A DNA stretch of 64,000 bases from sequence record PZ242158.1. One strand, given 5' to 3'. The position numbers and the translations under genes are program-made. The stretch is from a phage. A model generated the notes under the pieces. That model was given only the letters and a program-made list of their open reading frames with translations, was not told the origin of the DNA and did no database searches. Shown piece after piece: positions 59,564 to 60,206 of the stretch (position 1 is its first letter; each line of letters starts with the position of its first letter).

Positions 59564-59635
59564 ACCAGTAAAAACTTAAATATCTGTACTATAAGGATTC
59601 GTATGTTTTATGTTCGCTCTAGAATAGAGGTCAGT

Positions 59636-59720
59636 AACTGTCCGTGATACGGACACTACTGTCCGTCACGCGGACACATCTGCCCGTAATACGGACACTA
59701 ACTGTCCGTGATACGGACAC
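59636..59720. repeat. four tandem 21-22 bp iterons (ACTGTCCGTGATACGGACAC), each an inverted repeat GTCCG..CGGAC
   Basis: Units at 59636, 59657, 59678, 59699; followed by about 130 bp AT-rich DNA. Confidence 0.75.
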
Positions 59721-60206
59721 ATAAAGAATATAACTAAAATAACTAAATAATAAAAAATAAAAGATCTAGTACTTATGGTACTAAAGTACATATACTTAAC
59801 TTATGTAGAATATACTAGATCCTAAGTACCATGTTTTAAATTTATTACTTACTATAGGTAGTGTCGGCCCTTCATTGGCACTCGCCTACGAGGGGCGAGA
59901 TGCCGGGCCTCCATAGTGCACACATGCAGGTCTGTTAACATGTGTGGGAGCGAAGCGATAGCGCAGGCCAAAGGCCGAGCACTAATGTGGACCACCGACG
60001 AAAGCTTGCCAGCGCCGTAAGGAGTCGGTTGAGAGCCTCCCGCGCGAGTTTGGATAAAGTTTATGTGTGGAAACGGACAATGAGGCCCCTAAATCGCTCC
60101 ACAGCCATATAAACTATACCAAGTAAGGCAATCGCACCAGTTTGATAGAAAAGCTCGTTACAAAGCGATACAGCGAGTTTTTCTATAACTTGAAGAGGAG
60201 GCAGCT

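Follow-up and report, generated by a model that had tools for sequence, protein, structure and literature searches.

The O protein of phage lambda binds through an N-terminal winged-helix domain, and in the origins of the plasmids RK2 and pPS10 a G+C-rich stretch comes after the AT-rich tract. In the lambda origin, ori-lambda, an AT-rich tract adjoins four iterons, each a 19-bp inverted repeat, and the initiator is encoded in cis (PMC7466680); iteron theta plasmids use a winged-helix Rep protein, cognate iterons of about 20 bp and an AT-rich DNA-unwinding element (PMC4980987). For Escherichia phage rV5, the origin was sought in the genome paper by skew analysis only and was not located, the turns of the skew lying only at changes of transcription direction (PMC3606486). 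Here we describe a 643-bp gap between the open reading frames (ORFs) ORF79 and ORF77 (rV5 numbering) in a 64,000-nucleotide stretch of phage DNA (record PZ242158.1; "the window" below means this whole stretch). The window comes from an rV5-like phage (Vequintavirus) and is 97-99% identical to rV5 and about 120 other Vequintavirus genomes. The gap holds an iteron array, an AT-rich tract and a GC-rich block with conserved folds (Table 1), and we propose, with a probability of roughly 0.55, that it is a composite replicon module in which a lambda-like iteron origin is joined to a new conserved structured element, acting as RNA or as single-stranded DNA (ssDNA). The same element was found in two divergent phages (L003, an IMG/VR contig, and L011, a Logan assembly contig) and in a family of 13-kb E. 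coli plasmids that includes p190. A literature search on the rV5 origin, on Vequintavirus transcriptomes and noncoding RNAs (ncRNAs) and on rV5-like satellites returned nothing relevant, and neither the origin, nor the element, nor the plasmid family was described in the papers found.

The locus resembles ori-lambda in its four imperfect inverted-repeat sites of about 17-19 bp, in the AT-rich tract directly after them, in a candidate initiator encoded in cis, and in an iteron number that varies (lambdoid phages have 4 or 6, the phages compared here 3 or 4). It differs in that ori-lambda lies within the O gene, whereas the sites here follow the ORF79 stop codon, and in that O has a C-terminal domain recruiting P-DnaB, which ORF79 lacks. 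Moreover, ORF79 has no detectable similarity to the Pfam family Phage_rep_O and only weak matches to O-like PHROGs, and lambda is without a comparable GC-rich element that is conserved and folded. The locus is also akin to iteron theta plasmids (RK2 oriV, pPS10, pSC101), a class into which the 13-kb plasmids fit: common to both are a winged-helix protein, an AT-rich tract and iterons some 20 bp long. However, classical iterons are direct and asymmetric and are bound by Rep monomers, while the sites here are palindromes without DnaA boxes, and the GC-rich stretch of this locus extends over about 200 nt and contains conserved covarying hairpins.

For the folded part, the closest parallels come from priming signals. 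In the IncQ plasmid RSF1010, the iterons and AT-rich tract of oriV are followed by hairpin-type, strand-specific signals (ssiA/ssiB) at which a dedicated primase starts, and in G4-type signals three hairpins are followed by a CTG start. The plasmid modules described below likewise consist of three small hairpins and then CTGTGTGG, a hairpin-plus-CTG layout; however, there is no sequence similarity to the RSF1010 or G4 signals, the element is present on one strand only, and RNA is a better fit than DNA for its UUCG loops and its helix with three G-U (G-T) pairs. In ColE1 (RNA II), at T4 oriF and oriG and in the primary-origin transcripts of T7, a structured or GC-containing origin transcript primes or activates replication. 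These systems need a defined promoter, and ColE1 needs no Rep, whereas here an initiator-like protein is present and no promoter was found by our scan. Finally, the phage-inducible chromosomal island-like elements (PLEs), satellites of the Vibrio phage ICP1, have their own RepA_N initiator and iterons and use the replication machinery of the helper. The 13-kb plasmids and rV5-like phages could plausibly stand in a similar relation, with the phages as putative helpers; unlike these plasmids, PLEs are integrated, and to our knowledge they share no element with the origin region of their helper.

Table 1. Features of the ORF79-ORF77 region (positions in the window)
Feature	Position	Strand	Evidence or remarks
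Sigma-70-like promoter of ORF79 (TTGACA-18-TATTTT)	59149..59178	+	Promoter scan, 10/12 matches; annotated promoter in rV5 record DQ832317
ORF79, 116-residue stand-alone winged-helix protein, candidate iteron-binding initiator	59213..59563	+	Pfam, PHROG and PDB matches
Iteron array, four 21-22-bp units, each with the 17-bp palindrome TGTCCGTnnnACGGACA	59637..59720	.	Tandem Repeats Finder, motif search
AT-rich tract, candidate DNA-unwinding element, 140 bp	59721..59860	.	GC profile
5' hairpin	59863..59913	+	Outer helix 59866-59870/59905-59909; inner helix 59877-59887/59893-59904
Variable linker	59914..59940	+	18-base insertion in relatives; hairpin modules in plasmids
Conserved core	59941..60048	+	Covariance model R1, covariation, strand-specific fold
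Variable, fast-evolving 3' part	60049..60140	+	67-69% identity to L003/L011
15-bp hairpin with A-run/U-run stem	60145..60186	+	Ends 7 nt before the ORF77 ribosome-binding site
ORF77, 192 residues, first gene 3' of the module	60207..60785	+	PHROG 12226

Iterons, AT-rich tract and ORF79

The first-pass annotation of the window had noted four tandem palindromic units of 21-22 bp in the gap, and our analysis bore this out. Tandem Repeats Finder reported a period of 21 and 4.0 copies, and this was the only tandem array scoring at least 50 within the whole window. The four copies of TGTCCGTnnnACGGACA (59639-59655, 59660-59676, 59681-59697 and 59703-59719) have 0-1 mismatch and are spaced by 21, 21 and 22 bp. 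When up to three mismatches were allowed, the window contained six matches versus 1.5 expected, a number reached in none of 100 shuffles; all those beyond the four sites had two or three mismatches. In a comparison of 14 Vequintavirus genomes, nucleotide diversity was 0.009 in the iterons versus 0.086 in the 73-bp spacer just upstream, which separates them from the end of ORF79. Selection thus acts on the array, and such near-invariance is what one would predict for a protein and its specific sites when both are maintained by selection. The array has three iterons instead of four in three of the genomes compared (L016, L021 and L028). Several GenBank records annotate the iterons as a plain repeat region. 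A 22-mer match in two Bradyrhizobium genomes was dismissed as chance, since the flanks show no similarity.

The AT-rich DNA reported after the repeats was also confirmed, with 22-24% GC over 140 bp (GC fraction 0.22-0.24 over 59700-59850). The tract holds two GATC sites and repeated GTAC motifs. The palindrome AGTACTTATGGTACT, which had been singled out within it, proved unremarkable (15 bp, with arms of just 5 bp). The equivalent position in L003, L011 and plasmid p190 is AT-rich as well, with unrelated sequence. A T7-promoter-like TTACTATAGGTAGT at 59847-59862, before the GC-rich element, was taken as a chance occurrence because it is not conserved in L003 or p190 and because we know of no single-subunit RNA polymerase in rV5-like phages. 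No sigma-70-like promoter was found within 59560-60200, a scan whose coverage does not extend to phage-specific promoters.

ORF79 matched PHROG 12838 ("replication initiation protein") at 5e-80 and, more weakly, the initiator PHROGs 8102, 428 and 270; against the PDB, it matched 4ro3, a winged-helix protein of unknown function, at 3e-6. It also aligned to residues 29-119 of the 298-residue Rep-like protein of a 13-kb plasmid (27% identity over 94 residues, pairwise E 2e-6). Together, the domain matches and the plasmid Rep alignment indicate that ORF79 is a stand-alone copy of an initiator-type DNA-binding domain, without a recruiting domain. Within our phage collection it was found in this genus only. 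The protein is labelled "putative transcriptional regulator" in rV5, a label repeated in many GenBank records, and "replication initiation protein" in RefSeq and by PHROG-based pipelines; the latter label rests on domain-level similarity only.

The two divergent phages encode ORF77 at 83% identity, and at the position of ORF79 they encode a 143-residue paralogue (28% identity, pairwise E 7e-7). It is followed by five palindromic repeats GATACATATTTGTATCAGAT (GATACAnnnnTGTATC-type) at spacings of 33, 21, 34 and 22, by an unrelated A-rich tract and then by the same GC-rich element as in the window. The presence of a paralogue with a different repeat set indicates that protein and repeats change together, the module being swapped as a unit while the GC core stays constant. 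The L003 paralogue (1319-1750) also has an acidic tail with a terminal phenylalanine (...ITESGEDF), which the ORF79 of the window does not have. This tail recalls the polymerase-binding C-terminal tails of T7 gp2.5 and gp4.

The GC-rich element and its homologues in 13-kb plasmids

The GC fraction is 0.54-0.63 over 59850-60100. The first-pass annotation had called this segment non-coding and had named coding capacity as the finding that would speak against it. Two frames were examined, the annotated rV5 ORF78 (59942-60112, + strand) and a minus-strand ORF (59852-59995). In the ORF78 frame, variable columns are spread over codon positions 1/2/3 as 18/19/20, and the frame is broken in relatives by premature stops in L003 and L011 and by a frameshift in Phage 203; no family matches were found for it in Pfam or PHROG. 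The minus-strand ORF has lost its start codon and gained stops in relatives. Because of the codon-position spread, the stops and the frameshift, coding was rejected for both: the block is non-coding, and the behaviour of ORF78 is not that of a gene. Several GenBank records call small ORFs of this sort within the element; these calls, like ORF78 itself, ought to be deleted.

The nested stems that had been described for this segment stood only in part. Folding of the whole block barely beats shuffles (z -1.65), but three sub-elements, the 5' hairpin (59866-59909), the core and the 3' hairpin, are supported by strand-specific folding and compensatory changes. The 5' hairpin has a minimum free energy (MFE) of -28.1 kcal/mol (z -3.07). 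Two of its 15 pairs show a compensatory change and 99% of the alignment cells are paired; from phage to plasmid p190 the helix changes from GGCACUCGCC/GGCGAGaUGCC to GUCACUCUCC/GGAGAGaUGAC, that is, by two G:C to U:A double changes. Stem E of the core changes from CCGAC/GUCGG in phage to CUGCC/GGCAG in plasmids, with A:U, G:U or G:C as the closing pair; three of the six pairs covary and all cells are paired. In the plasmid hairpin modules, compensatory changes between homologous hairpins of different modules affect 5 of 12 pairs. The observed fraction of paired cells was 97-99%, versus 15-51% in controls with slid partners. The core fold gave z -2.18 on the + strand and -0.22 on the - strand, and the 3' hairpin (MFE -16.9 kcal/mol) gave z -4.31 and -2.04, respectively. 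In phage and plasmids alike, the genes on either side of the element have the folded + strand as their sense strand.

In the core, the closing helix UGUGUGGGAG/CUCCCGCGCG includes three U-G pairs; the other parts are a variable hairpin, the invariant segment GAAAGCUUGCCAGCGCCGKAAGGAG and the CCGAC/GUCGG stem. A covariance model of the core, R1, scored 136 bits in the window; in L003, L011 and five plasmid loci its scores were 98-118 bits, and it found one copy per replicon and no extra copy in the window. Nucleotide diversity among the 14 genomes was 0.016 in the core and 0.0105 in the 3' hairpin, versus 0.044 in the ORF77 coding sequence, and the core evolves more slowly than the flanking genes. 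The core also contains, at 59950-59956, the heptamer GCGAAGC, which as DNA forms an unusually stable mini-hairpin. In the linker, most relatives have 18 extra bases after 59924, between direct repeats GTGCAYAC. The window and the rV5 group are without them, apparently owing to a deletion between these repeats, and plasmids have 0-3 extra hairpin modules at this place. Within the variable 3' part, GCCCCUAAAUCGC at 60086-60098 is a short motif common to phage and plasmids. The hairpin that follows is 92-95% identical in L003, L011 and L004 and failed the criteria of the terminator scan; it may form the 3' terminus of the element, or else act at the 5' end of the ORF77 mRNA as a stabiliser or an attenuator.

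Two further pairings were rejected. A long-range helix proposed by RNAalifold (59905-59911/60083-60089) has a 3' side that varies without compensation, and the local helix 59866-59870/59905-59909 was preferred; pairing of GGUCU (59924) with GGACC (59988) was discarded because the middle position varies on both sides without pairing. The Rfam scan that had been suggested as a check for an ncRNA yielded no family at or near its gathering score. Run in E-value mode, Rfam 15 gave no credible family over 55000-64000, the only match there being to rli43, which spans the AT-rich tract and reaches 24.6 bits against a gathering score of 100; none was found in the plasmid L012 either. Our sigma-70-like promoter and terminator scans detected neither a promoter nor a canonical terminator for the GC-rich element.

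BLAST searches of E. coli genomes and plasmids detected homologues of the element in circular records of 13.2-13.9 kb (NZ_CP020521, CP148565, NZ_CP035869 and NZ_CP178698) and in NZ_CP043822, a trimeric assembly of the same plasmid type, and a pattern scan of metagenomes added two plasmid-type and three phage contigs with the element. The members of this family (L012, i.e. NZ_CP020521.1, and L013, L014, L015, L022, L025 and L026) have about one-tenth of the size of the 137-kb phage genome. Among their products are the HTH_36 Rep as well as major capsid, neck and tape-measure proteins; no terminase or portal was detected in them. For the tape-measure protein, the longest match among phages is to its Vequintavirus counterparts (25% identical across 72-77% of the length). 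The Rep proteins of pZ1322 and pVTB pass the Pfam HTH_36 cut-off, and that of p190, which does not, matches "replication initiation O-like" PHROGs. The non-coding region of the plasmids (2.2-2.9 kb) contains plasmid-specific iteron sets, the element immediately after them and then the promoter of the Rep operon. Additionally, p190 contains three TATCAACATATCAATnTGATATA palindromes that, together with an AT-rich tract and the 5' hairpin, make up a unit of the phage style. The plasmid copies of the element comprise 1-4 modules of the UGUGUGUGG motif, then small stable hairpins, one of them C(UUCG)G. In these plasmids, which replicate autonomously, Rep, iterons and element form the only recognisable replicon, and the plasmids may be unreported satellites of rV5-like phages.

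The p190 Rep-like protein also shares with the window a 57-nt match (82%), or 22 residues (73%), between L012 10882-10948 and window positions 19688-19754. The latter lie in a minus-strand ORF (19551-19763) encoding an acidic 70-residue protein with the motif GVTxxxLAxPVKE, which may be a shared protein-interaction motif.

One and the same layout, i.e. an HTH_36 protein, palindromic repeats, AT-rich DNA and the folded element, is thus seen in three replicon types: rV5-type phages, L003-type phages and the plasmids. Across these, the repeats and the AT-rich tracts are unrelated in sequence and the folded element is the same. The constancy of the GC-rich block while protein and iterons are swapped, and its occurrence in the 13-kb plasmids, argue that it is an independently conserved module and not simply a part of the iteron unit. 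The earlier alternative of "origin or ncRNA" is probably not an either/or, because both components appear side by side.

Surroundings of the module

The gap lies in a + strand early region limited by a point of divergent transcription at about 58.1 kb and by a tRNA cluster at 62.1-62.9 kb. The minimum of the cumulative GC skew falls, together with the point of divergent transcription, at about 58 kb, and the module is 1.5 kb away. All genes flanking the array are on the + strand. The terminator scan found no terminator 3' of ORF79, and the motif search of the window found no iteron motif in the ORF79 promoter. The ORF77 homologue in L010 (50% identity) stands in a tightly packed row of genes, without a long upstream gap or the element; ORF77 is not an obligatory partner of the GC-rich element.

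The same early region contains seven tRNA genes and a second structured GC-rich block. This block (61391-61590, about 58% GC) is non-coding and lies between ORF75 and a promoter at 61593-61621; it folds as a row of hairpins, has no Rfam match and, according to covariance model R1, is not homologous to the first element. Compared with L003/L011 it shows compensatory changes (GGUCCAG/CUGGAC to GGCUCAG/CUGAGC, and AACCCA/UGGGU to UUCCCA/UGGGA). At 62554-62652, ARAGORN reported a tRNA-like gene with a four-base anticodon ("tRNA-???"), which is annotated as "tRNA-OTHER" in phage Murica and has no entry in the rV5 record; the gene might encode a tRNA with an intron or one that reads frameshifts. We also observed that 18 "Campylobacter phage" records (GenBank MG0656xx) are 97-99% identical to E. 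coli rV5-like phages, so that their host labels look doubtful, and that CP057073.1, an E. coli "plasmid" of 137.6 kb, is an rV5-like phage genome.

Proposed origin function and alternative explanations

Since the layout recurs in three replicon types and matches that of ori-lambda and iteron plasmids, we infer an origin function and take the module to be, most likely, the place (or one of the places) where rV5-like phages begin to replicate. Replication would start with dimers of ORF79 binding the four 17-bp palindromes, as its fold, its homology and its co-variation with the repeats suggest. The sites are two helical turns apart, which puts all four palindromes on the same side of the double helix. 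On the model of ori-lambda with its O protein and of iteron plasmids, the resulting nucleoprotein complex would stress and open the adjacent 140-bp AT-rich tract, after which the phage's own primase-helicase would be loaded. The element of about 190-330 nt, which forms hairpins on the + strand, would then act in cis at the origin. As RNA, it could be an origin or primer RNA or a replication-control RNA; as DNA, it could be ssDNA that folds after the duplex has been opened and serves as a priming or loading signal.

The origin architecture seen by the first-pass annotation is therefore upheld for the upstream winged-helix gene, the repeats swapped together with it, the AT-rich tract and the GC-rich part, but it comes without a helicase-recruiting domain or a DnaA-box cluster, and the GC-rich block is a separate module. 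Several observations weigh against the proposed origin. The Pfam scores of ORF79 are just under the curated cut-offs (HTH_36 24.5 bits, cut-off 25; DUF6945 27.4 bits, cut-off 28), HMMER with ORF79 against 1.8 billion representatives gave eight matches and no informative relatives, and its single-sequence AlphaFold model, with a predicted local distance difference test (pLDDT) score of 39, was unusable and was not used. Pfam detected no domain beyond the DNA-binding one in ORF79 and no helicase-recruiting domain; the protein lacks anything equivalent to the C-terminal half found in lambda O and in plasmid Reps, which leaves the recruitment of a helicase unexplained. Of DnaA boxes, which many such origins possess but not all, only two with one mismatch (59221 and 60049) were found within about 0.5 kb of the array. 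The nearby turn of the GC skew coincides with the switch of transcription direction, the covariation counts come from few independent lineages (for the core essentially phage versus plasmid, plus two phage clades), and the GC-rich element has no detected promoter of its own. The module is also absent at the syntenic place in GEC_vB_MG, a Seunavirus and hence of another Vequintavirinae genus, so that an origin here would be genus-specific.

The same array could instead be a set of operators. ORF79 would then be a transcription regulator, as many records call it, and the palindromes would block or tune read-through, or an AT-tract promoter, feeding the operon from ORF77 to the tRNA genes; the GC-rich element would be an unrelated ncRNA or leader. 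ORF79 consists of a DNA-binding domain only, like small repressors, and as the flanking genes all share one strand and ORF79 has no terminator after it, the array would lie inside a transcription unit. However, no sigma-70-like promoter overlaps the sites and the promoter of ORF79 itself has none, and four sites phased at two helical turns beside a 140-bp tract of 22% GC are atypical of operators. Furthermore, the plasmid homologue of ORF79 is the sole Rep candidate, and there the iterons take the same position relative to the GC core. We therefore consider an operator array unlikely. Possible but doubtful is a free-standing gene for a trans-acting small RNA, such as a protein sponge or a regulator of host or helper, to which the iterons would be adjacent by mere linkage; this is compatible with the iterons still being an origin. 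The modularity in plasmids, with 1-4 UGUGUGUGG units and stable hairpins including C(UUCG)G, recalls multi-site RNA sponges, the folded strand is the sense strand in both replicon types, a helix with three U-G pairs suits RNA better than DNA, and the second structured block and the seven tRNA genes make this a neighbourhood rich in RNA genes. Against it stand the lack of a detected promoter, canonical terminator or Rfam match, and the fact that such a gene would have no need to adjoin iterons in three replicon types whose iterons are unrelated.

Winged-helix proteins that bind repeated sites occur also in lambda cosB, and the element could be conceived as a pac-type packaging signal by which the terminase of a helper packages both phage and 13-kb plasmids, with ORF79 and its sites resembling small terminase and cosB. 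The plasmids do look like satellites, with capsid, neck and tape-measure genes, no detected terminase or portal and about one-tenth of the phage size. This explanation is nevertheless very improbable: ORF79 is located in an early region of nucleotide metabolism and tRNA genes and not by the terminase gene, it is homologous to the N-terminus of a plasmid Rep, and the fold indicated by its compensatory changes and the G-U pairs specific to one strand is that of single-stranded nucleic acid in the element rather than of a duplex site. Returning to the origin module, a more far-reaching version would make the element a new cis-acting folded signal that is integral to the phage origin and is shared with extrachromosomal satellites of about 13 kb, which would keep it, and in one case an entire unit with iterons, AT-rich tract and hairpin, so as to capture the replication machinery of an rV5-like helper; we hold this stronger form to be rather unlikely.

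The iteron part of the module is of a known kind; what is new is the conserved folded element coupled to the iterons and shared with phage-derived plasmids. rV5-like phages are widely isolated and are used against pathogenic E. coli, and the module gives them a specific, cloneable origin candidate. The element is an undescribed family, conserved above the neighbouring genes, and it links a large lytic phage to small phage-derived plasmids. Should this link prove functional, it would reveal the way in which a satellite taps into the replication system of its helper, and the element would represent a new kind of origin-associated RNA or ssDNA signal.
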